In this document: positions 6,081 to 61,165 of the stretch, one piece after another
Position numbering within the stretch: position 1 is the first letter of the stretch
How the letters are laid out: every line of letters starts with the position of its first letter
IMG/VR virus record: IMGVR_UViG_3300020036_009879
Location: 9,651 to 73,650 of that record
Length of the DNA stretch: 64,000 bases
From: a virus
Lineage: Duplodnaviria; Caudoviricetes
Strand: one strand, 5' to 3'
The notes under the pieces: model-generated
The model's input: only the letters and a program-made list of their open reading frames with translations
Told to the model about the DNA's origin: nothing
The model's database searches: none
Position numbers and translations under genes: made by a program

Positions 6081-6236
6081 AGCTTTTCTTTGTCTCCTCC
6101 AAGGGTACAAAGATGGTGTTGAGAACTTTTCTTACAATTAAAGTGTGGTACCTACATTTGGAAAAATCTCTATACTGAATTCTTTGTGAAGAAACTATTT
6201 TGAATTACCTTTAAAATACCTCACATATATACATAG

Positions 6237-6268
6237 AGAAGACTCCTACAGTTAAGTAAGAGTCTTCT
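6237..6268 (-). terminator. Intrinsic terminator hairpin
   Basis: agaagactc...gagtcttct 9-bp inverted repeat downstream of 6288 ORF. Confidence 0.6.
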
Positions 6269-6287
6269 GAAATTTAGTTTGAATGAA

Positions 6288-7004
6288 CTACTTTAGAGTG
6301 ATTGGATTCTCCACTAGATTTAAGTCTAGGGTTTTTAACAACTCTATGTGGTAGTTAGTTGTGAACTTGAATTGAGAAAGAGTCTTGTCAGAAGCTTTGT
6401 AAGCTTCTTTTGTTGCAACTCTAATTCCTCTAACAAGTTCATTGAAAGCAGCTGATAGTAGGTCGATGTCTTCTCTTGTACCAGTAACTTCAAAGTCATT
6501 GATAGTTGAGTTTTTTACCTGTACCACTTTACAGTTGAACTTTTCTTTCAAGATGTTTAGTACGTTACCTTCAAATGATTTGGCTTCAATTCCATCTTTC
6601 CAAGTACCGTTTACAATAACAGTAATTTCTTGAATGGTTTTGTCAAACTCTTCTTCAGTGATAACTTCTTCAACTTTCTCTTGTCTTGTCATCAAGTTGA
6701 TTACTTCTTCATCTTGTTTAGCTTCATCAGTTAAGTAATAGGTTCCTGCTATGTCTCCCTTCTCTTTCTTGGTAACGTTGATTACTCCTTTTTGTTCTAG
6801 TGAAGATATAACTCCACTTCTGGTTTTTCCTTTATAAGGTAAGAATTCATTTACTGAATAATCCCAAACGATTGAGTCTAAATCATTTTCCCAGAAATCT
6901 GATTCTGACATTGTTTTCAAGAACACTTGTTCTTTTTCTGTAAGACTGAACCCTACTACTTCATTTTTTGTAGCATTGGCTACTGTCCCATTTGACTTTT
7001 TCAT
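6288..7004 (-). CDS. Hypothetical early protein; C-terminus paralogous to the 5001..5747 protein (start revised to MKKSNG)
   Basis: Shared WKDG(I/M)EAKSFE and YK(A/E)SDK(T/A)LSQF(K/R)FTT(N/S)Y blocks. Confidence 0.65.
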   Translation of the reverse strand: MKKSNGTVANATKNEVVGFSLTEKEQVFLKTMSESDFWENDLDSIVWDYSVNEFLPYKGKTRSGVISSLEQKGVINVTKKEKGDIAGTYYLTDEAKQDEEVINLMTRQEKVEEVITEEEFDKTIQEITVIVNGTWKDGIEAKSFEGNVLNILKEKFNCKVVQVKNSTINDFEVTGTREDIDLLSAAFNELVRGIRVATKEAYKASDKTLSQFKFTTNYHIELLKTLDLNLVENPITLK

Positions 7005-7020
7005 GACTTTGATTTTTAAA

Positions 7021-7203
7021 TTATTTAACTGAACTAAGTTGGTTGTCTTTGATGTAAGTTTCCAAGGCTTCAATTGTAGTAAAGAACTCGAGACTATTTA
7101 AAGACTCTACTTTAGAACCTAGGTCCTTGTAGACTCTATAATTGAATATCTCTCCTTCTCTGTTTGTTAACTGACCTTCTGACCCTGCTACTAAGACTAC
7201 CAT
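7021..7203 (-). CDS. Small hypothetical early protein
   Basis: ORF directly after promoter 7213-7289. Confidence 0.6.
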   Translation of the reverse strand: MVVLVAGSEGQLTNREGEIFNYRVYKDLGSKVESLNSLEFFTTIEALETYIKDNQLSSVK

Positions 7204-7212
7204 GATTTCTTT

Positions 7213-7289
7213 CTTTTTAATTATAGTATAAATTTAAGGAGAAAGACTCGAATAAAAAACTTTAATTGGAATTATTTTTAAAAGATTTT
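7213..7289 (-). promoter_or_regulatory. Early promoter, 77 bp identical to 8020..8096
   Basis: Exact direct repeat seen in sequence. Confidence 0.8.
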
Positions 7290-7291
7290 TG

Positions 7292-7762
7292 TTACAAGAA
7301 TGATATATAGAAATCATTCATGCTAGAGAACAATTCTTCTGACATACTATGTAGTAATTCAGGTTTTACAATATATAATGCAAACACTTCTGCAAATGCT
7401 TCACTATAGGTTGATAATGGATGTCTACTCCCTGAGTATACTGATATACATTTTGGAGCTAAATCATTACAAATCTCTCTTACTTGTTTAAAGTCAGAAT
7501 CATGTCTAAAATTATCTTCAATTGCATGGCCAAACTCATGTGCTATACAAACTGATTCTAAGTTACTACCTACTAGAGACATAACATTTGGAAACAAAAA
7601 GTTTCCAAAGTTGTTTGGTCTACTAGGTTGGATACCTAAAAACTTTTCAAGACTATTTGAAATATACACTACATTTTTAGTATAACAACCAGCACTATTT
7701 CTAGTGTTCTCTAGTCTTTCAACTGATAGTCCAAAGTGTATATTTAAGTCTTGTAGTGTCAT
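7292..7762 (-). CDS. Zincin-type metallopeptidase (HExxH; lethal-factor-like motif set)
   Basis: IAHEFGHAIE and downstream YSEAFAEVFALY. Confidence 0.6.
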   Translation of the reverse strand: MTLQDLNIHFGLSVERLENTRNSAGCYTKNVVYISNSLEKFLGIQPSRPNNFGNFLFPNVMSLVGSNLESVCIAHEFGHAIEDNFRHDSDFKQVREICNDLAPKCISVYSGSRHPLSTYSEAFAEVFALYIVKPELLHSMSEELFSSMNDFYISFL

Positions 7763-9619: not shown

Positions 9620-10740
9620 TTTGTATGGTGGGTTATACCCTAATAGGGTTTCCAACCTAGACTTTATTAGAATCCTTTATATGGTTTCACTTTTAAGTCT
9701 AAAATAAAAGTTTCGAATAAAAAACTTTTTTATTAAAAATTTTTATTTTGGTAAAATCTTCTTTGGAAAAAGTTGTTTTTCTGAAAACTAATTTTAAAGG
9801 TCAGTTTTAAAGAAAAGGTTTGGACAAATGTTAGGTTTATGGAGAGGGTGAATTTTTCCAATCTAACATTATGAGAAGTGTTTTTGTGAAAAGGTTTTGT
9901 CCCTGGGTAGATACCCTTGTAGGAGACAAGAATTATCTTTTCATACAACCAAGCATTTAAAGTCTTTCATTTCGTAAAATTACTTACACTTTAAATACAT
10001 TTTCACTCTAATTTTATTTCAGTACTGTTTCACATAAAACGTGGCCTGAGTATTGGTTTTGCAGGGGTGCTACCATAATCAATTGATTGATGAATAATTA
10101 TAGTAGGAAGTTCTTTTTTCATAAGTTTTTTCTATTAAAGTGTTTCTGAAATAGGGTTTTTCTATCCTCAGATTTATTTAAAAAGAAAAAAAATATATAA
10201 AAAGGGGAGTTTTCTCCACCTCTTTTGTCAAACCTGTGGTAAACCTGTAGTAACTCCTCTGGTTCAAACCTCCTGGCTTTCTTCACTAAAACTAATCCCA
10301 AAGAACTAGAATTCAGAATCACCACTGACTTTCACTTAGTTCTTTTTGAAAATACTAGTAATAAACCTATCTTTTCTTGTAAAACCCTCTTAAAACTATT
10401 ATTAAAACCCGATTTAAAGTTCTATTCAGAACCTCTGAACCTAATAAACATGGGATAAACCCTAAAACTGAAATAATCTATACCTGTTGGTTGTGTCTAT
10501 AGCATTTGAACCATATGAGGTTAAGTTTCAGATTTTGTAGTATATTCAATTTCTTTAGTTTTCTACTACTTCATCTTCTCTCCCTTGTTCTCTATTCTTC
10601 CAGCTTCTTTTTATCTCATTCTTATTTTACTCTAGTCTGTTTTTGAATCTTGTTTTTGAAAATACCGTTTTTGAAACAAGGTTTTTAAGGCCTTGTTTCC
10701 TATTAACGGTCTAAAGGTATTATTATTTTATTTCTCCTTC

Positions 10741-23524: not shown

Positions 23525-24124
23525 TATTCTATATAGTATTCAAAATTAGTATTATTTTTACTCTTACCTTTTAACTTATCACTAAGTCCACCTGAATCAT
23601 GACTTATTGATTCTGCTGCTAATTTAACTGAATCAAAGATTTCTTTTGTTTCAGTATTAATAACTTTCTTCCAGGTCTTTTTATTCCTTAGTAATCTTTC
23701 TTTTTTTGTTAAACTATCCCATACTCTTTTAATACTATTTTTATTTCTAAGTTTTTGTTCTTCTTTTTGTTCTTCAGTTAGATTTAGTTTATGTCTTAGT
23801 TGACCTTCACTATTCCTTTTTCTTGTCTCTTTAGAATGAACTCCACTTTTATCACTAGTTTCAGTAAGTTTCAAATTAAGTCCGTTAGGTCCTAAGACAT
23901 CATAAAAGTCTTGATAGTGCCTTTCTCTTTCGTTTAAAAGTGAGATTTCACATTCTTCAAGAATTTCAAAAGTATGATTTTCAAAACCGTGTTTCAAAAA
24001 AGAACTTCTTAAGTTTGCCTATATGACAATCAATTCTGTGTTGTTTCCAACGAAACTTAATATCAACACTCTGACCGATATAAATTTTACTAGTCGGAGA
24101 TATGATTTTGTAAATTCCAATCGT
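23524..24124 (-). pseudogene. GIY-YIG homing endonuclease pseudogene (ACG in place of ATG, +1 frameshift near 24000)
   Basis: Upstream frame reads IGIYKIISPTSKIYIGQSVD, nearly identical to 60458..61165, then shifts into the 23524..23997 ORF. Confidence 0.8.
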
Positions 24125-24125
24125 T

Positions 24126-27100
24126 TTAACTACAAGCTGAGTATCCACAAGAAGAACACTTAAGACAACCTTCTGTCATAATGATTTTTTTCTCTTTACA
24201 CTCTGGACACTCAATTCCACCTTCTTTAGAATAGCTTTGTAAAACTTTAGCTATCACTTGATGAAATGAGTTAATTGTAGCGAACTTGAATATTGTTTCA
24301 GCAACGAATCCAGGTTCAACTCTGTGTCTAAGAAGTGAACTTAACATCCTAGTAGAATTCTGTTCATTCTCAATCATATAGTCACTAAGACTTTGAACTA
24401 GAACTTCTCCACCTGTTGACATTAAAGTATAGACCCCTTTACCCTGTTTGACTATTACAGCTTGTTTGAGTTTCTTGGATAACTTGTTCTCTCCACTGTT
24501 TGGAATAGCAAATACTTCATAAGGTCTATCATCTAACTTACCAATAAAGATAGCAAAATCATTACCTCTAGAGGTTTTAAAGAAGACATCACATTCAAGT
24601 TCAGAAGGTCTCTTAGTTGAATGGTTATACTCAAACTCCTCTTTCTTATTTAAGACAGAAGTAGTAGAAAGTACATTTCCTCTAGAATTATCTCTATAAA
24701 CAGTTACTCCTTTACAACCTGAATCAAAAGCCATCTGATAGACATCTTTCACCATCTGTTCAGTTACAGATTCTGGCATATTTACAGTTACAGAAATAGA
24801 GTGGTCTACCCATTTTTGAATAAACCCTTGCATCCTAACTTTCTCTACATAATCAACATCTGTTGAGGTGGCACCAAAATAAGGAGACTTTTCAAAAATC
24901 TCTTTTAGTTCACTCTCTTTCAAGGCAGCTAAAATAGATTCAGCTTTTTCAAAAAGAATACCTGTTGCACCAGCATAAAAATCAATGAAAGTTCTTTGGA
25001 AGACTGGAAACTCAACCCACTTGTCTCCAACTTCATCAACATAGTCAAACTCTAGTTCACCAGTAACCTTTTTCTTTCTAAAGTACCAAGGGTAAAACAT
25101 TGGTTCAACTCCACTAGTAGTTCGTGTAAGAAGTGATACTGAACCAGCTGGTGCTATTGTCAATATAGCAATATTACGTCTACCAATTGATTTGGCTCTA
25201 TCAATTAACTCTTGTGTCATTAGTTCATTTTCTTCTAAACTAAATAGTCTAGTTAAGAAACCACTAGATTCAATATCTCTATTATTCCAAAGTGGGAAAG
25301 CTCCTCTTTCTTCTGCTAATTCAATAGAGGCTTCATAGGCTGTAGTAGCTAATAATTGATGTAGTTTTTCAGCAAATTCTGTACCTCCTGATGTACCATA
25401 CTTGATACCAAGTGCTGCCATCATATCACCTTCACCTGTAACTCCTAGTCCTGTTCTTCTTCCTTCTACAGCTTTTTTACGAATCTTTAACCAAAGTTCT
25501 TTTTCTACTTGTTGGTAAGTTTCTTCAAATCTCTTCTCTTCAATCTCCTCTAAGATAGCATCAATTTTTTCAATTTCAAGGTCTACAACATCATCCATTA
25601 ATCTCATTGCAAACCCTACATGTTTGGTAAACAATGTATCTTCGAACATTGAATTAGACTGAAATTTATTTGAAACATATCCATACAAGTTTAAAAGAAG
25701 TAGTCTACAAGAATCAAACGGAGGTAAAGGAATTTCACCACAATTGGCTGATTTAATTGAAGAACCCAATCTCTCTTTCTTGGCAGTCCACCCATCAAAG
25801 TTTCCTACAAAGTAGTTATGGTACTGTTCTACTACCCCATTATAAACATCTTCTATTCCATCTTCTACAATAGATTTTACTGTAAACAAAGGAAGTTTTC
25901 CAAAGATTTCAGAATCACGGTTTAGTAAACCAGAACCTTTAGAAGTTTTGTACCTAGAAACAGTACGTAATTGGTCTCCTTTTTTAAGTTGGTCTAATTC
26001 TACTTTCAAACCACTCTTTAGATAGAACTGGTGTTTTTCTGTAGCTCTAACGAACTCTCCATCTGAGAAAGTTACTTTAAAGATTCTTTGTTTTTCAGCA
26101 ACAACAGTTGGAGCTGTCATCTTTTTGATAACAATCACCTTACTTTCACTTTCACTGTAAACTAATACGTCTTTACCTTCTTCAGCTAATTCACGGAAAG
26201 ATACATACCCTCTACCATCAGCTACAGCAACTAAAGTGTCTCCTGTGAAACAAGGGTTAGTTCCTTTTTCTTCCCAATCGGCGCCATAGAATCTACAAGG
26301 AGACTCATTAATGATTTGGTCCCAAAACAAGATACCTGGTTCAGCTGACTTCCAAGCATTGTGACAAAGTTTGTCCCAAATTCTTTGAGGGTCTACTTTT
26401 TTGTAATAGGTTTTTTGACCATTGATTGTCTTACCAGGATAGAGTTTATCGTATTCAAATAGGCTCTCTAAAGTAATTTCACCGTTAGAGTCTTGAAGAA
26501 TGTCAAGATAATCTTCAGTTAAAATTTCATCAAGAGTTTTGTCAATAGGGAATGTTTGATAGAAGTCTTTCTTCTCCATAATACACTTCATGAACTCCTT
26601 GGTAATTTTTACAGAAACATTAGCTCCTGTAACTGAACCTGGAGTCATCTTCTTGTCAATAAACTTCTCAGAATCTGGGTGATGAATACTTACTGATAAC
26701 ATAAGTGCTCCACGTCTCCCATCTTGTTGAACTTCTCTAGTAGAGTTTGAATAACGGTCCATGTATAAAGACATACCACAAGACTGTCCTAAGGGAACAT
26801 TTCCAGCCATAGCTCCTGATGGTCTTAAGTGTGAAAGGTCTTGACCTACTCCACCTCTTCTTTTCATTAACTGAACTTGTTCTTCATCAGCCTTCATAAT
26901 TCCTCCATAAGAATCAGGATGGTTTCCAATCAAGAAACAATTTGAAATACTCGTGTTTGTAAATGGGTTTCCTATTCCAGCCATTGGAGAACCTTGCGGA
27001 ACTATATAGTTGAAATCTTTTAGTAATTGATAAATCTCTTCTTCAGAAAGAGGGTTTGGGTACCTAGACTCAATTCTAGCAAACTCTTTTGCTATCCTTC

Positions 27101-45537: not shown

Positions 45538-46449
45538 TTATGAAGTTTTTCTTTCCATTCTTAAGAATGAATAATCAAATTGATGTTTATCATCTTTTGG
45601 ATAGTCTTCTCTTGAGATAATTTTGAAATCTCCCATAAACTGTTCAGCTGATGGAAACATAGTTCTTTCTCCTACTACATTACCAATGTTAGTGTTAACA
45701 ATAGTAAGGTCAAGTTCATCTATGACAGACATTGCTTGTTGATAAATTTCTCCACCACCTATAATGTAAGAAACTCCAGAGGGACAAAGTTCAATAGCTT
45801 CTTGTAGTGAGTGTACAATTAAGATATTACCATTTCTTAGTATCCCTTTGAGATAATCTCTATCTCTTGTGATAACTACATGACATCTGTTAGGTAAGAT
45901 TCCTGGTAAAGATTCAAAAGTCTTTCTACCCATAATAATATGGTGTCCTGTAGTAAGTTCTTTGAAACGTTTAAGGTCATTAGGCAGGTTCCAAGGAATT
46001 CTGTCATCAATAGCAAGTACTCCATTATTTGAGATAGCAGCTATTGAAATGAGTTTTCTTTCAGGTTTTTCAATAATTTTTTTGATATTCGGTTTTGAGT
46101 ATCCAGGCCCCTTTAGAACTTTTCCATCTTCACGATAGATAGGTTTTCCATCTTCTCCTAACTTACTCATATTAGAGCGTTGGATTTCATCAAAAACTTC
46201 TTCAATCTTGTGTTGAAGTCCATGTTCAAGAATAGTACCACAAAGAATATACATCATATCACCAAGTGCATCTGCAATACCTACAATATCATTAGTAAGG
46301 GTTGCTAATTGGTACTCTTCATTCTCCTCTCTCATTAGTTCATAACGAAGATTTTTTCTGTCTTGGGAGATATCAGCAATTGGTTGTTCACTAACTGGAG
46401 CCCTGAAAGTTTTGTGGAATAGTTTTACTCCTTCTAATTGTTTTTTCAT
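45538..46449 (-). CDS. Fusion: MazG/PRA-PH-like NTP pyrophosphohydrolase + dihydrofolate reductase
   Basis: EENEEY...ADALGDMMY...VFDEIQRSNMSK...GKVLK, then IAAISNNG..IPWNLPNDLKRFKELTTGHHIIMGRKTFESL...IIGGGEIY. Confidence 0.85.
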   Translation of the reverse strand: MKKQLEGVKLFHKTFRAPVSEQPIADISQDRKNLRYELMREENEEYQLATLTNDIVGIADALGDMMYILCGTILEHGLQHKIEEVFDEIQRSNMSKLGEDGKPIYREDGKVLKGPGYSKPNIKKIIEKPERKLISIAAISNNGVLAIDDRIPWNLPNDLKRFKELTTGHHIIMGRKTFESLPGILPNRCHVVITRDRDYLKGILRNGNILIVHSLQEAIELCPSGVSYIIGGGEIYQQAMSVIDELDLTIVNTNIGNVVGERTMFPSAEQFMGDFKIISREDYPKDDKHQFDYSFLRMERKTS

Positions 46450-46456
46450 AATATAG

Positions 46457-49015
46457 TTAAAGTATTTTTAATTGTGAATTTTTATTTAAAGTGAACTGAT
46501 TGGACTTGCTGTAAGTTTCATCATATTGGATAGAACCACTGAAGATTATTAATGATTTTTCAGACCCTACTAGTAACTTTTCAAAACGAGTAAACTCTTC
46601 TGACCAGATGAGTAGTTTGAATTGTTTATAGTTACTTTCAAGTGTTAGTCTAGCATACTTTCCTTTAACTGACTTACCTACCCTTACTTCAACTACATAA
46701 CCTCCAAAAGAACGAAATACACTATAGTCTTGTCTTTGGTTAAATTCAAGTGGTGAACAAAACTGAGTGTCAATACCTTCATCTTCAGCTATTTTTTTGT
46801 AATCAATTATAGCTAAACCTGTTAGTTCTTTCTGTTTTTTTAACCACCACCAGGTTTCAGTTAAGTTTCCAATAGTGTATGGGTCAGTAGCTAAATTGGA
46901 AGGTTTTACTTTCTTGAGAGTTCTGAAAAACTTAACTAGTCTGTCTCTCTCTTGAAAATCTTCTCCTAGTTCATGAAGTATGTCAAAGGCTCCTGATGAA
47001 ATCAAAGCTTCATAAGTCTGTTTCTTTACCTTTGAACCAGTAAAAGAGTGTCTTTCAATAAAGTCTTCAAGTGAACTATAGAAACCATTCTTTCTTCTCT
47101 CTTCAATAATCTGAAAAGCTGTATCTTCTCCAATCCCTTTAATAGAACCAATCCCCCAAAAAATATTACTAGATTCTTGTTCTGAAATCATACTAATCTC
47201 TGACTTATTAATATCAGGAGGTTTAATTCCAATCTTTTTGGCCTGGATAATTTCAGATAAGTAATTAAGTGTCTCTTTTTCATTAGCATAGTCTAAGGCT
47301 ACTGTCCAAAACTCTATTGGAAAAAAGACTTTTAAGAATTGTGATATATAGCTCGTTAATGCATAGGCTGTAGAGTGACTATTAGATGTAACTATTCCAG
47401 ATTCCATTGTAAGTGTATGAAAAGGGTCTTCCATCTCAACATCATATACATCATCTGTCTTTTGATAATCAATTGATTCAATCTCAACCAGTTCAGTATA
47501 AACTCCTTTAGGTTTTTCATTAACAGATTCCATACAATAGTCTCTAGTATAGAAGATTTTGTCAGTTTTGATGTCTATCTCTTCTAACATCTTTTCACCA
47601 TTAGAAGTGGGGAACTTATGATTCAGGGTAGTAGAGATTGATTTACCATTTTTTAGTGTCATCTTATAAATCTCTCTTTTTCCTTGATAGTAGATGTCTA
47701 TTATCTTGTTTTTCATTAGTTCACCTTTACTATTTAGTGAAGAAGAATTTCCATACCCCCTTCTTTTGTATCTAAGATGTTTCCTATAGAGTTCATTAGT
47801 AGTCTTTTTACCAGTAAATGGAGGGTTGTTTTTCAACTCATACATCTCTTTAATAGTAAGACATTTTACATCTCTTCTTTTTCCAGGTTGGAAGATTTTC
47901 TCATCTCCTGAAATACACTTATTGAAAGAATACCTAGCAAAGAATACCATAGAGTCCCAAGTTTCATTAAAACTCTCTAAAGGACAACCTCTTTCAAGAA
48001 ACCCTTTTCTAGCACGGTCTTTCCAAGCTAGTAATACATCAAGTTTTAACTTACCCATTGCTCTACGGATATCATCTGATTCAACCATTGAAAGTCCAGC
48101 TATCTTTTGAAAAACTTCCATAATCTGCTCTTGGTAAATCAGGAGTCCATAAGTATCTTTTGTTATCTCTTCAGTACCCCATAGGTAGGTAGGTTTTCTA
48201 CCTTCATTTTTACACTTAACATAAATCTCATGATAATGATTATCCATAGGTCCTGGCCTAAAGATAGCTACAGCTGCAATTAAGTCACCCATAGTTTGTG
48301 GTTTCAGTTTTTTAGAGTAGTCAGTTAGACCATCTGAACCAAACTGAAATACATCTCCATTCCAACCATTACTAAAATATCTATAAACCTCTGACTTAAA
48401 AGGGAGGTTGTAGATATCAGGTACTTCTTTATTGTTTGACTGAATCAAGTTTAAGATATCTTGAAACTTATCTAACTGTTTAATTCCTAAGATGTCTTCT
48501 TTTAAGAATCCAGCATTATCCATATCATCTCCACCCCATTCTGAAACTACCATTCCTTGTTGCATTCTTGTAGGTACCCATTCATTAGAAGACATAACTT
48601 CTGGAAAAATGATTACAGCACAAGGATGTATTGATTTAGTTCTTGGTTGATTCAGTAAGGTAGGTAACATGTATATATAGTCTGAGTTACTTTTAATGAA
48701 CTGTTTTAACTTAGGTTCTGTCATTGACCTTTTAATCAAGTCTAAGTAAGTTAAATCACCATCGGAAACTATTGATGATATGAGATTAGCTTCAGCAAAG
48801 TCTACAGATGCTAACCTAGCAAAATCTTTTAAAATACTCTTTAGTTTCATAGTAGTAAAGGTACCTACAGATGCTACTTGAGTTACTCCAAAACGGTTTT
48901 CAATATAGCGTTTTACTTTGCCTCTATCTCTACCAGGAAAATCACTATCTATATCAGGCAAACTCCCTTGTTGTAACTTTAGTCCTGTTTTTTCTACTAC
49001 TTTAACTACTTTCAT
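46457..49015 (-). CDS. dnaE: DNA polymerase III alpha, C-terminal half, with cis mini-intein
   Basis: LPDIDSDF, HPCAVII, KEDILG, IFRPGP, LIYQEQ, FNK/SHSTAY, GIGSIKGIG, OB fold. Confidence 0.9.
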   Translation of the reverse strand: MKVVKVVEKTGLKLQQGSLPDIDSDFPGRDRGKVKRYIENRFGVTQVASVGTFTTMKLKSILKDFARLASVDFAEANLISSIVSDGDLTYLDLIKRSMTEPKLKQFIKSNSDYIYMLPTLLNQPRTKSIHPCAVIIFPEVMSSNEWVPTRMQQGMVVSEWGGDDMDNAGFLKEDILGIKQLDKFQDILNLIQSNNKEVPDIYNLPFKSEVYRYFSNGWNGDVFQFGSDGLTDYSKKLKPQTMGDLIAAVAIFRPGPMDNHYHEIYVKCKNEGRKPTYLWGTEEITKDTYGLLIYQEQIMEVFQKIAGLSMVESDDIRRAMGKLKLDVLLAWKDRARKGFLERGCPLESFNETWDSMVFFARYSFNKCISGDEKIFQPGKRRDVKCLTIKEMYELKNNPPFTGKKTTNELYRKHLRYKRRGYGNSSSLNSKGELMKNKIIDIYYQGKREIYKMTLKNGKSISTTLNHKFPTSNGEKMLEEIDIKTDKIFYTRDYCMESVNEKPKGVYTELVEIESIDYQKTDDVYDVEMEDPFHTLTMESGIVTSNSHSTAYALTSYISQFLKVFFPIEFWTVALDYANEKETLNYLSEIIQAKKIGIKPPDINKSEISMISEQESSNIFWGIGSIKGIGEDTAFQIIEERRKNGFYSSLEDFIERHSFTGSKVKKQTYEALISSGAFDILHELGEDFQERDRLVKFFRTLKKVKPSNLATDPYTIGNLTETWWWLKKQKELTGLAIIDYKKIAEDEGIDTQFCSPLEFNQRQDYSVFRSFGGYVVEVRVGKSVKGKYARLTLESNYKQFKLLIWSEEFTRFEKLLVGSEKSLIIFSGSIQYDETYSKSNQFTLNKNSQLKIL
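47381..47917 (-). mobile_element. Mini-intein (179 aa) in DnaE between FNK and SHSTAY
   Basis: Begins CISGDE, block B STTLNHKF, VYDVEM, ends TSN followed by Ser. Confidence 0.9.
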
Positions 49016-49631
49016 CTTGACTCTTTTTAAGTTTATCTTCTTTTCTCTTTTTCCATGCTGACTTCATATTCTGTCTAGTTTCTTCAGAAAGACTTTTACC
49101 TTTAAGGGCTTTTGAAATTTTATCTTTAGAAACTTGTGACATTATCTTACTTGTTTGACTTCTAGAGTTTACTTCTCTTTGTTCCACAGTCATTATTCTA
49201 CCCTTATTAGCTAAAGATACTTTTTCTCTAGACTCCTTTGAAAATACTTTTCCTAAATGTTTTAGTCCAATCTTTTTCTTATGTTCTTTAGATAAAGTTT
49301 TACCTGTTTGAACCTCTGAAATCTTCTTTCTAGTTTCTAATGATAAATATCCTGACTTATCATTAGTTTCAGTAAGTTTCAAGTTTAGTCCATTAGGACC
49401 TAAAACATCATAAAAGTCTTGATAGTGTCTTTCTCTTTCATTTAAAAGTGAAATTTCACATTCTTCAAGAATTTCAAAAGTGTGGTTTTCAAAACCGTGT
49501 TTTGAAAAAGAGGATTTTAGTTTGCCTGGAGCTGGGTCAGTTCTATGTTCTCTAAATCTCCTTTTAACATCTACTGATTGGCCTATGTAAACTTTGTTAG
49601 TTGGAGAAGTGAATTTGTAAATCCCAATCAT
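49002..49631 (-). CDS. GIY-YIG homing endonuclease with NUMOD3-like repeats
   Basis: IGIYKF...VYIGQS...R; repeated S.E.(R/K)KKIS motifs. Confidence 0.9.
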   Translation of the reverse strand: MIGIYKFTSPTNKVYIGQSVDVKRRFREHRTDPAPGKLKSSFSKHGFENHTFEILEECEISLLNERERHYQDFYDVLGPNGLNLKLTETNDKSGYLSLETRKKISEVQTGKTLSKEHKKKIGLKHLGKVFSKESREKVSLANKGRIMTVEQREVNSRSQTSKIMSQVSKDKISKALKGKSLSEETRQNMKSAWKKRKEDKLKKSQDESS

Positions 49632-49632
49632 A

Positions 49633-49842
49633 CTAATTTAAGTTTTCAAAATTTATTTTATGTCCAGTTTCTTCATCTACAGTACTAATTAATTGTCCTG
49701 TAACTGTCAGATACCCTAAACCTGTATTGTTAATCTGTTCTTCAGCTAACTGAAAAGTTGGGGCTTCTATAATTGGGCCTACCCAAGTTTTGATGATACC
49801 ATCTCTTGGGTCTATTGCTACTAAGTTGGTTGTGAATTTCAT
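49633..49842 (-). CDS. Small hypothetical protein between dnaE halves
   Basis: ORF with 1-2 nt spacing to neighbours. Confidence 0.6.
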   Translation of the reverse strand: MKFTTNLVAIDPRDGIIKTWVGPIIEAPTFQLAEEQINNTGLGYLTVTGQLISTVDEETGHKINFENLN

Positions 49843-49844
49843 AT

Positions 49845-51389
49845 TTAGTATTTAATTATGTCATCACCCTCTTCCACTTCATGAACTTGTACAACTTTTT
49901 CAACTTCATTTCTTAGTACTCTTACTAAAGTACCTTCTGCTAATTCAACAGTTGAACCATCTTCAAGTTGGAATGAAAATAGTGGTCTCTCTTCCCAATT
50001 TCCCATCCTTCCTGAGTTCAAAAATCTTTCAAACAGTAAGTCAAAATCTAAAGGGTCTACTTTAATGATACCAAGTAGATAGGCTATAAGTGAGCCACCG
50101 GCACTACCTCTACCAATTCCAGTTAAGATATTCTCTCTTTTAGCAAACTGAATAATATCATATAGTGAGAGAAAGTAGTCAATTACATCTCCTTTACGTA
50201 GTACATCAATTTCAACCTTTAGTCTATCAATATACTTTTGAGTATCTTTGATTTTCTTTTCTTTAAAGCCTTTTTTAACTAAGTGTAAAAATAACTCTTC
50301 ACTTGAACCAAATTCTTCTTCTTCTTCAGGAGTCATCTTATATTTTGGAAGATGTCTTGTATTGGTATCGTATGAGAAGTTACAGTTTTCAGCAACTATT
50401 TGTTCATTAGAAACTGAATCTTTAAATAGTTTTATCCAACCTTTTGAGTTTTTAGTAAACATATTAATTAGTTCACTAGCATATTGGTCTTTAGACTTAA
50501 AGTACTGATTGTCACTTTTATCATCATAAGACTTAGACAAATCCCAAAGAACCTCACGTGTTCTAAAATCAGATTTTTCTAAATAGTAAGCATCAGTAAT
50601 ACTAATTGGTTCAATATCTTTACTTAAAATGAACTTTTCAAGATTATTGATATACCAAGTATCTTTTTCTTCATTTAAGAAGTTAACTGTATCAAGTTGG
50701 AAGAAATCAGACACTTTTGGATAGTCTGAAAAGTCAGTAGATTTAGGGTCTGTAATAATATACAACCCTTCTCTGTTCAATTCTAAAAACTCTTCTTCAA
50801 TGTAATGTTTCCCATCTATATTTAAAATAGTATTAAATTTCAAAAGGTTTAACCATCCTTGAAAATCTCTACAGTATAACTTAATACTAAAAGACTTATT
50901 TTTAGAATTTATTACTGGAATTTCCATTCCCATAATAGACTTAATACCAGCTTTTTTACACTCTCCTTGAAATACAATAGCTCCACTAAGTGATGATTTT
51001 TCACAAATAGCTAAAGTCTTAACTTCAAGAAACTTAGCTTTCTTAACCCAATCTTTATATATACTAGTACCATTCATTAGTTCATAACCTGAATGTATCC
51101 CTAAGAAAGATTTAGTAGGTAATTTTTGTACAGATTTACCTACATATTTTAGTTCAGTAAGTGTTGGTTCTTCTTCAAATTTTTGAGTATACCATCTCCC
51201 TCCAAATTCATAAACGTAACTTTTTACGTCTTCACTATCATAGTCTTTAGGGAGTATTATTTCAAATACATTAGTATCATCTGTTACTATATAGTAGTAG
51301 TTATTATTAATAAATAATAGTCCATCTTCTATATTGAAAGAGAGTAACATCTCTTTTAAGTAAGACTCTAGTTTTTCAATTTGTTTCAT
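49845..51389 (-). CDS. dnaE: DNA polymerase III alpha, N-terminal (PHP) half with Hint-like tail
   Basis: GIHSGY PHP start, DAYY, YIDRLKVE, DYFL, GIGRGSAGGSLIAYLLGI, DLLFERFLN. Confidence 0.9.
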   Translation of the reverse strand: MKQIEKLESYLKEMLLSFNIEDGLLFINNNYYYIVTDDTNVFEIILPKDYDSEDVKSYVYEFGGRWYTQKFEEEPTLTELKYVGKSVQKLPTKSFLGIHSGYELMNGTSIYKDWVKKAKFLEVKTLAICEKSSLSGAIVFQGECKKAGIKSIMGMEIPVINSKNKSFSIKLYCRDFQGWLNLLKFNTILNIDGKHYIEEEFLELNREGLYIITDPKSTDFSDYPKVSDFFQLDTVNFLNEEKDTWYINNLEKFILSKDIEPISITDAYYLEKSDFRTREVLWDLSKSYDDKSDNQYFKSKDQYASELINMFTKNSKGWIKLFKDSVSNEQIVAENCNFSYDTNTRHLPKYKMTPEEEEEFGSSEELFLHLVKKGFKEKKIKDTQKYIDRLKVEIDVLRKGDVIDYFLSLYDIIQFAKRENILTGIGRGSAGGSLIAYLLGIIKVDPLDFDLLFERFLNSGRMGNWEERPLFSFQLEDGSTVELAEGTLVRVLRNEVEKVVQVHEVEEGDDIIKY

Positions 51390-51460
51390 ATCTTTTAAAT
51401 AAGGGTAAAATTAATGTAAAAGTCTGTATTAAAAAACTTTTAGAGAATAAATTTTATAAG

Positions 51461-51487
51461 AAACACCCGTTTTTAAAACGGGTGTTT
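51461..51487 (-). terminator. Intrinsic terminator
   Basis: aaacacccgtttt-t-aaaacgggtgttt. Confidence 0.75.
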
Positions 51488-51516
51488 TAGGTATTGTTTT
51501 TTAAAATCGGTATCTT

Positions 51517-52320
51517 CTATAGAGATGTTCTTTTTTCTTCCTGAGAACCTTTCAAAGATAGTGTCTCAGTTACGTACTTAACAGTCTCTTCCCAACCGTC
51601 TTTGTATTCAATAGGGTCTACTAAACCAAGATTTAAGAAAGCTTCTACACGTTCAACATCTGAACCTGTTCTTCCATCAGCTTTTCCATCAGGAGTTGGT
51701 TCATAAGAAGTAGAAGTAAGCTTCATTACATCATCAAAGCTAATACCCATTTTCTGAGTAGACTGGTAGCCTTTCCATAGAACATCAGTTTTGTTTAAAT
51801 CTACAAAAGGGGTAATATAGGTTACCAGTTCACTATCCCAGTTTGAAATAGCAAAAGCGTGACGTAGAGAATCAATTGATTCTTGTCTACAGTCAGGGTA
51901 GATTGCATGGTCTCCACTGTGTACTCCTAATGCTATCTCTACTTCTTCTTTTTCTTCAGCAGTTGCCATTGATAAAGCTACAGCAAAAAGGATTGAACTA
52001 AAGATTACATTTCTATTTGGAACTACAGTAGCCTTCATACTCTCTGATTCATAGTGACCCTTTGGAACTGAGTTTCCAGAACTTAATAAAGAAGAACTTA
52101 GAAGACTTCCAACTGAAGTTAAGTCAACTTTATTGAAAGAAATAGGATACCTTAAACCTTTCATATGATTTACAAATTGTTCAGCTCTTTCTAGTTCAAC
52201 TTTGTGTCGTTGTCCATAGTCAAAACTTACTGTTTTTAATTCATACCCTTGTGCTAAAAGGTGTAATGCTAAGCAGGTGGAATCCATACCTCCACTCAAG
52301 CTCAAAACTGCTTTTTTCAT
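51517..52320 (-). CDS. queC: 7-cyano-7-deazaguanine synthase
   Basis: LSGGMDS, FDYGQRH, VVPNRN, YPDCR. Confidence 0.9.
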   Translation of the reverse strand: MKKAVLSLSGGMDSTCLALHLLAQGYELKTVSFDYGQRHKVELERAEQFVNHMKGLRYPISFNKVDLTSVGSLLSSSLLSSGNSVPKGHYESESMKATVVPNRNVIFSSILFAVALSMATAEEKEEVEIALGVHSGDHAIYPDCRQESIDSLRHAFAISNWDSELVTYITPFVDLNKTDVLWKGYQSTQKMGISFDDVMKLTSTSYEPTPDGKADGRTGSDVERVEAFLNLGLVDPIEYKDGWEETVKYVTETLSLKGSQEEKRTSL

Positions 52321-60457: not shown

Positions 60458-61165
60458 TTAATTAGTTTTATAGTCTTTTAAAAAGACAAAGTTAGTATTA
60501 TTTTTAATTTGACCGTTTAGTTTGAAAGATAGTAGTTCAGGTTTCATCAGAATTGATTCAGCAGCTAGTTTGATAGAACTAAAAACTTCACTTGTAACTG
60601 TATTAACAACACTTTTAGCTCTATTACCCTGTATTAACTTATTTCCTTTGTTTGACTTAGAAATCTTATTTTTCCAGTCTTGAGTATAAACATTTAGTCT
60701 TTTACTAGCCAATACTTCTTCTGAATATACCTTACCTTTCTGTGTCTTACTTATCTTCTCTTTACTTTCTAAAGAATGTTTAAAACCAGTACTTTTTACT
60801 GAACACTTCTTTTTTGTCTCATCAGAATGTTTCTTACCTGTATTAAAGGTCCTTAGTTTTTCTTTTGTTTCATTAGAGTGAACTAGTTTCTTATCACTAG
60901 TATTAGTTAAAATTAGATTTAATCCATTAGGTCCTAAAACATCATAAAAATCTTGCCAATAACGTTCTCTTTCATTTAAGAGTTCTATTGAACATTCTTC
61001 AAGAATTTCAAAGGTGTGGTTATCAAAACCGTGTTTCTTAATAGAGTTCTTAAGTTTGCCTATATGACAATCAACTCTGTGTTGTTTCCAACGAAACTTA
61101 ATATCAACACTCTGACCGATATAGATTTTACCAGTCGGAGATATGATTTTGTAAATCCCAATCAT
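60458..61165 (-). CDS. GIY-YIG homing endonuclease
   Basis: IGIYKI...IYIGQS; NUMOD3-like HS.ETK repeats; NUMOD1-like end. Confidence 0.9.
   Translation of the reverse strand: MIGIYKIISPTGKIYIGQSVDIKFRWKQHRVDCHIGKLKNSIKKHGFDNHTFEILEECSIELLNERERYWQDFYDVLGPNGLNLILTNTSDKKLVHSNETKEKLRTFNTGKKHSDETKKKCSVKSTGFKHSLESKEKISKTQKGKVYSEEVLASKRLNVYTQDWKNKISKSNKGNKLIQGNRAKSVVNTVTSEVFSSIKLAAESILMKPELLSFKLNGQIKNNTNFVFLKDYKTN

Follow-up and report, generated by a model that had tools for sequence, protein, structure and literature searches.

How does a replicative DNA polymerase work when its gene is cut in two within the palm domain, three to five residues ahead of the catalytic aspartates? This question is raised by dnaE in a 64,000-nucleotide (nt) stretch of a marine Caudoviricetes virus (IMG/VR record IMGVR_UViG_3300020036_009879, positions 9,651 to 73,650), referred to here as the window. 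The N-terminal half of the polymerase ends in FERFLNSGR, followed by an acidic tail of 53 residues, and the C-terminal half opens with a basic head of 17 residues, followed by SLPDIDSDF. We propose that the polymerase is made as two polypeptides, and that tail and head are the remnant of a dead split intein, which probably joins the halves non-covalently at the cut. The genome record (73.65 kb, 91% complete) holds neither a second dnaE nor PolA, so the two-piece polymerase presumably must be functional.

The break is exact, since the Pfam profile DNA_pol3_alpha runs to position 98 in the N-half and resumes at position 97 in the C-half. According to the list of open reading frames (ORFs) and Pfam, the N-half (514 residues plus stop; 49845-51389, minus strand) holds the PHP domain (4.3e-15) and the first part of the palm (DNA_pol3_alpha, 5.5e-27, profile positions 4-98), a match that ends at residue 461. 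The C-half (852 residues plus stop; 46457-49015, minus strand) matches the same profile from residue 15 (1.8e-26, positions 97-260) and carries the catalytic strand, the rest of the palm, the thumb, the fingers (8e-36) and HhH (HHH_6, 5.7e-20), such that all DnaE domains, namely PHP, palm with catalytic aspartates, fingers and HhH, are present over the two pieces. The tail (residues 462-514 of the N-half; 49848-50006, minus strand) and the head (residues 1-17 of the C-half, MKVVKVVEKTG plus LKLQQG; 48965-49015, minus strand) have no counterpart in unsplit DnaE, and the Pfam profile runs unbroken from half to half when both are set aside. From residue 18 of the C-half, the catalytic strand SLPDIDSDF follows (48938-48964, minus strand), with its PDIDSDF motif intact. 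Break, tail and head had all been placed here by a first-pass annotation made from the sequence, and the ORF coordinates and profile positions bear it out.

The same break is found in the nearest GenBank phages, the Cellulophaga phages phiST, phi13:1 and phi19:2 and Tenacibaculum phage Larrie (genus Cbastvirus, about 50% protein identity), whose dnaE is annotated as two genes divided at the same residue, with a tail of the form ...EGDxIIKY and a head of the form MKxxxI....PKLVNG|TLPDID. In phiST and Larrie, the halves are separated by a stop codon and 1-2 nt, followed by ATG. Metagenomic relatives (contigs L004, L006 and L008/L009) share break, tail and head with a 4-nt gap, and the L004 tail is 91% identical to that of the window. 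Overall, break, tail and head recur in phiST, Larrie and more than 20 metagenomic relatives, mostly with a gap of 1-4 nt and no endonuclease. Furthermore, Bacteroides phage BS-TP1, the faecal phage contig MT835494 and the metagenomic contigs L037-L039 have a dnaE divided at this very residue, with both extensions longer (tail 75-92 residues, head 31-33 residues); 22 further N-half clusters carry long tails of 74-77 residues.

A search of 1.84 billion representative proteins with a profile of the tail located it in dnaE exclusively as the C-terminal end of split N-halves, and no unsplit dnaE carrying the tail was recovered; the other matches were repeat proteins, a few short fragments without dnaE context, and one further protein, P0017. 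The head pattern MK.xKI...G.KL..G stands at the start of all 15 C-half clusters examined, and both extensions are kept in every relative examined. In nine pairwise comparisons of tail plus head, the proportion of non-synonymous differences (pN, 0.05-0.35) was well below that of synonymous differences (pS, 0.33-0.80), with a ratio of non-synonymous to synonymous rates (dN/dS) of 0.12-0.35, leaving the extensions somewhat less constrained than the flanking catalytic blocks. Conservation in every relative and pN well below pS argue that the extensions are not chance read-through, and the substitution pattern indicates protein-level purifying selection on both. The tail has a net charge of -3 to -9 across relatives (-8 in the window), and the head of 0 to +6 (+3 in the window). 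P0017 itself is 89 residues long (L011:340-735) and joins a tail-like domain to an N-terminus that is not DnaE; an ORF beginning MSKIVKIKSLGEVPVFN, which resembles the start of a C-intein, lies about 75 nt further downstream. On this contig of only 735 nt, a tail/head pair may occur in another host gene.

The extensions would be absent from the mature protein if the interruption were removed as RNA, in the manner of a group I intron with its endonuclease, or bridged by frameshifting or read-through. GIY-YIG genes, of which one lies between the halves in the window, are often located in group I introns, and in one relative (L037, 2235-2243) the halves lie in one frame and are separated only by TAA-GAT-ATG, such that a single stop makes the gene two-piece. 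Against such explanations, no Rfam family was found at E ≤10 over 46000-52000, the relatives with only 1-4 nt between the halves differ in frame offset, 840 nt of packed ORFs separate the halves in the window, and both extensions are selected as protein. A group I intron with a homing endonuclease was rejected on the absence of intron core RNA in that Rfam search and on the 1-4-nt gaps of relatives, and we consider any removal or bridging of the interruption highly improbable.

Splicing at the protein level would require residues that tail and head lack in all relatives. Position 1 of the putative intein, directly after ...GR, is occupied by Met-Gly throughout the short forms and, in each of the 22 long forms, by Ala or Gly; where the block B motif TxxH would be expected, short forms have AEGT and long forms DKDAEF. 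The head ends in QQG in the window and in VNG or VDG in relatives, with no terminal His-Asn, and there is no Cys in the tail or head of the window. The first-pass annotation had noted the absence of Cys/Ser1, TxxH and a terminal Asn/Gln, and the Met-Gly start, the AEGT and the QQG before Ser+1 confirm its reading. Since all splicing residues are absent, splicing is excluded. A covalent join by some unusual trans-splicing could be argued from the residue after the head, which is Ser or Thr in most relatives. It is Lys in one of them (P0038), however, and no position-1 nucleophile, block B Thr/His, terminal His-Asn or Cys is available; the remnant comprises just 70 residues (53 + 17), its structure matches are limited to intein residues ~47-96 (Npu numbering), and a complete Hint domain, for which about 120 residues or more would be expected, is not found. 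We therefore attach very little credence to a covalent join.

An active intein was also not found at this dnaE site among the relatives, all 22 long-form tails beginning with Ala or Gly. The pattern FERFLNPERC occurs in none of the viral contigs searched and in six unsplit bacterial DnaE proteins, where its Cys is an ordinary residue; the Cys in MT835494 likewise falls at an ordinary extein residue of unsplit bacterial DnaE. As a contrast from the same genome, a live intein is exemplified by a mini-intein of 179 residues inside the C-half (47381-47917, minus strand; FNK|CISGDE...TLNH...IVTSN|SHS; Pfam Intein_splicing 3.6e-4), in which Cys1, TLNH and the terminal SN|S are all present and which looks intact. 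It lies at FNK|SHS, three residues from the cyanobacterial split-intein site; it is present in L004, L005, L007 and L010, and absent from phiST, Larrie, L006 and L008. The intein with which the first-pass annotation had compared the tail is a 170-residue mini-intein (CFTGDT...IKSAN|C; ~25700-26210, minus strand) in the class II ribonucleotide reductase gene of the window. Another contiguous intein, GIGRG|C...VVHN|SAGGS, is found in the dnaE N-half of L010 (~2300-2690; residues ~453-580) and also in P0020, so that as many as three insertions of Hint type, each at its own site, occur in the dnaE of this phage group.

By sequence, no Hint match for the 53-residue tail was obtained in Pfam or PHROG; its only PHROG match, PHROG 13169 'DNA polymerase', is a family that includes the tail itself. 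Sequence-profile searches of the PDB with the tail were not significant (a P-type ATPase A-domain hairpin at E 0.018, two inteins at E 0.6-1). An hhalign comparison of short tail plus head with the window's own inteins gave a weak match to both Hint lobes (P ~0.008, reached in 0-1 of 100 column shuffles). By features of the ESM protein language model, the tail lies nearest the PT-HINT, Hint, Hint_2 and Intein_splicing clusters (scores 0.82-0.89), which we treat as a lead only.

The predicted structure of the tail is more specific in what it resembles. An AlphaFold2 model built from an 8-sequence alignment has five strands and a mean predicted local distance difference test score (pLDDT) of 78.6. 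In a Foldseek search of the PDB, all matches with a root-mean-square deviation (rmsd) below 2.1 Å were inteins (template-modelling score 0.58-0.68, rmsd 1.4-2.0 Å, 40-42 residues, at most 38% identity), whereas the non-intein matches had an rmsd above 5 Å. In VIA, inteins made up 20 of 20 among the matches listed for the model (Z at least 2.0), with the tail registered on residues 68-119 of 170-residue mini-inteins (68-119 of the PolII mini-intein) and on residues 47-96 of the N-terminal intein fragment (IntN) of Npu DnaE. A scan of 48,161 PDB chains independent of Foldseek gave 45 chains reaching Z 2, of which the top 17 are all Hint (Z 3.0-5.7), in the same register. Hint-fold similarity of the tail had been proposed at the first pass as a test, and each of these searches returned it. 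Because the structure matches all fall in one register, we place the tail as the second half of the N-intein, ending at the canonical split/endonuclease insertion site. As modelled, it appears to be a partial Hint domain with Hint beta-strand topology, whose scores are modest since the piece is small.

The long forms bridge from this remnant towards complete inteins. Their tail and head together come to ~110-120 residues, near the size of a minimal intein, and the short tails are clear homologues of the long ones, which measure 75-77 residues in Bacteroides-phage dnaE (hhalign probability 97%, E 1e-11). A profile of long tail plus head matched an alignment that combines seven genuine inteins of these phages (P 4.4e-5, 49 columns, block B region); three different long tails match Pfam Intein_splicing below threshold (E 0.009-0.06), each time at profile positions ~38-94; and in the PDB, the long form matches by sequence the Pab PolC intein alone. 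A read-through model of L037, with the stop read as Gly, is of low confidence (pLDDT 50.5); among the matches listed for it, Hint domains account for 50 of 50 (Z up to 8.3). Beyond the split site, these matches extend into the head strand, as over Npu residues 52-114, with the head strand on Npu 103-114 in this low-confidence model. Since the L037 matches run into the head strand, the head is best read as the first C-intein strand, and the short-form head, on such modelling, as that strand followed by LKLQQG as the stub of the last one. The likeness of the C-half start to a strand of the C-terminal intein fragment (IntC), claimed at the first pass, agrees with this reading, the 33-residue heads of long forms bridging to the IntC layout. 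In MT835494 (L003:7201-7330, an UNVERIFIED record), the head ORF is closed by a stop, after which the C-half is read in a different frame (...GGHSALP* / ...ADIDVDY), which reflects either a frameshift or a sequencing error.

How, then, might such a remnant serve a polymerase in two pieces? We envisage that a Hint domain was once present at the break as a split intein, which would later have lost its N-terminal lobe, the block F/G strand and all catalytic residues, leaving the acidic C-terminal tail and the basic N-terminal head, with no peptide bond formed between the halves. In split inteins, the fragments first meet by way of an anionic IntN region and the cationic IntC, and fold together thereafter (PMC11766414). 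The piece kept here would be this association part, with the same charge polarity, which leads us to propose that the tail captures the head: the tail, predicted to fold alone, most likely draws in the head strand electrostatically and takes it up to complete its beta-sheet. Capture would bring Arg461 beside Ser18, letting the palm enclose the active site, and would on this account be needed for assembly of the polymerase. The gap of 1-4 nt would be the place where the endonuclease domains of inteins sit, and in the window it has taken up the 69-residue ORF and the GIY-YIG gene.

Several points weigh against this proposal. Since no active intein was found at the dnaE site, the intein ancestry is read from fold and layout only. 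Foldseek E-values for the tail model exceed 1 because the query is short; its Z-scores, at most 5.7, are low in absolute terms, so that the case is carried by the exclusivity of Hint among the best matches and not by the score; AlphaFold2 may be echoing intein-like sequence patterns; and the fused long-form model is, as stated, of low confidence. Together with the non-significant sequence-only searches of the short tail (Pfam, PDB profiles), the modest Z-scores and the lack of a known active intein at this site would also fit a small beta module independent of inteins, for example one derived from DNA brought in at splitting, whose Hint likeness arose by convergence. Such a module would, however, have to account for the exclusive presence of Hint in the top 17 of 48,161 chains, in one register ending at the canonical split site, and for long forms that approach full Hint size (~110 residues) and have independent weak intein matches in Pfam and hhalign, and we think convergence unlikely.

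A further objection concerns what the remnant does. In the NrdA of phage Aeh1, another enzyme in two pieces with charged tails, the tails are not needed for fragment association; they are needed for higher-order assembly and activity, and fragments without tails still heterodimerise, with a ~2000-fold loss of activity (PMC3045599). By analogy with these tails, 'clasp' may be the wrong word for the role of the dnaE remnant. The extensions could be Hint-derived and be selected for something other than joining the halves, which the large palm interface would accomplish; their task would instead be to hold the catalytic strand in place, to promote higher-order assembly or to bind a further protein of the replisome, and the break at 3-5 residues from the catalytic aspartates agrees with such roles. 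Speaking for capture, the retained piece corresponds to the part by which split inteins associate, anionic IntN and cationic IntC (PMC11766414), and the same opposite charges are seen here. We regard a selected role other than joining as a lesser but real possibility, and favour non-covalent capture of the head by the tail.

Next to the dead remnant, the window carries mobile genes. Four packed minus-strand ORFs make up the locus: the dnaE N-half, a 69-residue ORF (49633-49842), a free-standing GIY-YIG/NUMOD3 homing endonuclease gene of 209 residues (49002-49631; Pfam GIY-YIG 2.6e-7, NUMOD3 8.7e-9; PHROG 314 'homing endonuclease' 1e-30), and the dnaE C-half, spaced by gaps of 2 nt and 1 nt and then by a 14-nt overlap between the GIY-YIG gene and the start of the C-half. 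The two genes between the halves are thus as the first-pass annotation had described them (ORF list; Pfam and PHROG for GIY-YIG). The GIY-YIG gene did not cause the fracture, the split being older and most relatives being split without it: no endonuclease lies between the dnaE halves in phiST, Larrie, L004, L006 and L008. In an alignment of the window with L004, the cassette sits exactly at the start codon of the C-half, with the 69-residue ORF occupying the original ATG context, which in relatives is the start-codon context of the C-half, and a second ATGAAA restarting the C-half. The presence of the split without endonuclease in relatives, and the placement of the cassette at the C-half start, argue that the endonuclease settled in an existing fracture. 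Compared across these loci, the split and both extensions come out as ancestral and the cassette of the window as a later, sporadic insert. For the 69-residue ORF, which belongs to this inserted cassette, no homologue was found in related loci and no family in Pfam or PHROG; in Atlas, it falls in small phage hypothetical-protein clusters only.

In other relatives, the gap holds other genes. A GIY-YIG gene is present in L005 and L007 as well as in the window, two small ORFs in L010, an unrelated ORF in L016, and a methylase with an HNH gene in MT835494. In Bacteroides phage BS-TP1 (PQ571274; L012:4758-6083 and 6100-7698), a gene for a Dda-like helicase lies between the dnaE halves; the dnaE C-half runs over the start of the record and is left unannotated there. 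Judged by this gene content, the gap between the halves is a recurrent landing site for selfish or mobile genes. The gap endonuclease of the window is only 53% identical to that of L005 and L007, no closer than to its two paralogues in the window, so the gap was probably invaded more than once. These two further GIY-YIG paralogues, at ~60482-61165 and ~23533-24121 (both minus strand), are 52-55% identical to the gap gene; the copy near 24 kb, whose alignment falls into two pieces, may be frameshifted.

Three of the relatives with gap inserts have a readable start of the C-half, and each of them has an in-frame TAA in the catalytic motif: LPDI*VDSDF with a 6-nt insert in L005 (8226-8255) and in L007 (3207-3236; the same contig as L034), and LPDI*EVDTDF with a 9-nt insert in L010 (3383-3415). 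All three also share a perfect 9-bp hairpin, GUCGGGAAG...CUUCCCGAC, which ends at the Asp codon just before the Ile-stop. Neither the window nor L004 has the hairpin, the window lacks the TAA insert, and a scan of viral contigs for further alleles with an in-frame TAA returned only an already known contig. The only in-frame rescue that we see for these alleles would be for the peptidyl-tRNA-Ile to hop across the stop and land on GUC; alternatively, the alleles may be defective copies. Their layout recalls the mobA/gene 60 cassette of phage T4 (bioRxiv 2022.08.31.505936), and by that analogy a short ribosomal hop may be linked to immunity against the endonuclease.

Drawing these observations together, a fuller account can be put forward tentatively, as one that could well be right yet falls a little short of an even prospect: a dead split intein, shrunk to 53 + 17 residues, would long have been kept as a dedicated heterodimerisation module without catalysis, through which a replicative polymerase regains its active site, and the gap would offer homing endonucleases a safe harbour, accompanied in some relatives by a stop-containing insert of 6-9 nt that needs a ribosomal hop. 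Inteins are usually seen as parasites that splice or are lost. The case presented here suggests a third fate: once splicing and endonuclease are gone, the half of a split intein that mediates association lives on within an essential enzyme as one of its structural elements. Such a fate would explain how the phage tolerates a fragmented polymerase active site, and would give testable support to a hypothesis put forward in 2011 for a fragmented ribonucleotide reductase; if true, dnaE would be the first case of the idea from Aeh1 NrdA that 'tails are dead split inteins' to be traceable by sequence and fold. Tail and head would also, if this is true, form a natural minimal split-Hint affinity pair, and such a small natural pair of peptides, of 53 + 17 residues, may bind without reacting and so be of use as a protein-assembly tag.

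Of the known systems, the NrdA-a/NrdA-b pair of phage Aeh1 is the closest in outline, an essential replication-related enzyme split beside its active site and described as 'genes in pieces' (Crona et al. 2011, PMC3045599). Its tails are essential and oppositely charged, and the authors suggested that they could be remnants of a degenerate split intein (PMC3045599). The dnaE of the window resembles it in that an essential enzyme is cut next to the active site and in that the extensions are oppositely charged and have no counterpart in the unsplit protein. In contrast, the Aeh1 tails have no detectable similarity and come from one phage, whereas the window tail has a recognisable Hint half-fold, and its module is conserved across a phage genus, occurs in a longer form in Bacteroides phages and persists without an endonuclease. 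The function of the Aeh1 tails was demonstrated biochemically, while the window module is known from sequence and models.

A second comparison is with fractured genes in which split intein halves flank a free-standing homing endonuclease, including three DnaE loci (Dassa et al. 2009, PMC2677866). Those inteins have six Hint motifs and five catalytic residues, measure 88-105 plus ~35-40 residues, and are expected to splice (PMC2677866). The layout is the same as in the window, with extein-N and an IntN-like tail, an endonuclease gene (GIY-YIG in some), and an IntC-like head with extein-C, tightly packed on one strand. The window differs from the fractured-gene inteins in its 53 + 17 residues, in its lack of catalytic residues, and in that the endonuclease is missing in most relatives.

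The cyanobacterial split DnaE intein (Npu/Ssp) resides in the same host protein, associates by a charge-first 'capture and collapse', and superposes with its IntN residues 47-96 on the window tail. Its site, near FNKSH, lies far downstream of the window break, and its IntN was reportedly divided by Shah et al. in 2013 into a folded and a disordered lobe. The Npu intein is complete and splices, unlike the window remnant, which lacks the N-terminal lobe and the catalytic strand.

Lastly, in gene 39/mobA/gene 60 of phage T4, a replication enzyme is split by a mobile endonuclease, an arrangement that resembles the window, and tail-like extensions have been noted on T4 gp39 and gp60 (PMC3045599). 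An early stop-containing insert in the downstream piece, as in T4, is found in three relatives and not in the window; it measures 6-9 nt instead of 50 nt, and bypass in these relatives is hypothetical. Taken together, fractured genes with active split inteins and a split NrdA with essential charged tails are already known; what is new here is a remnant that is traceable by its fold, conserved in two phage groups and two size classes, and persisting without an endonuclease.

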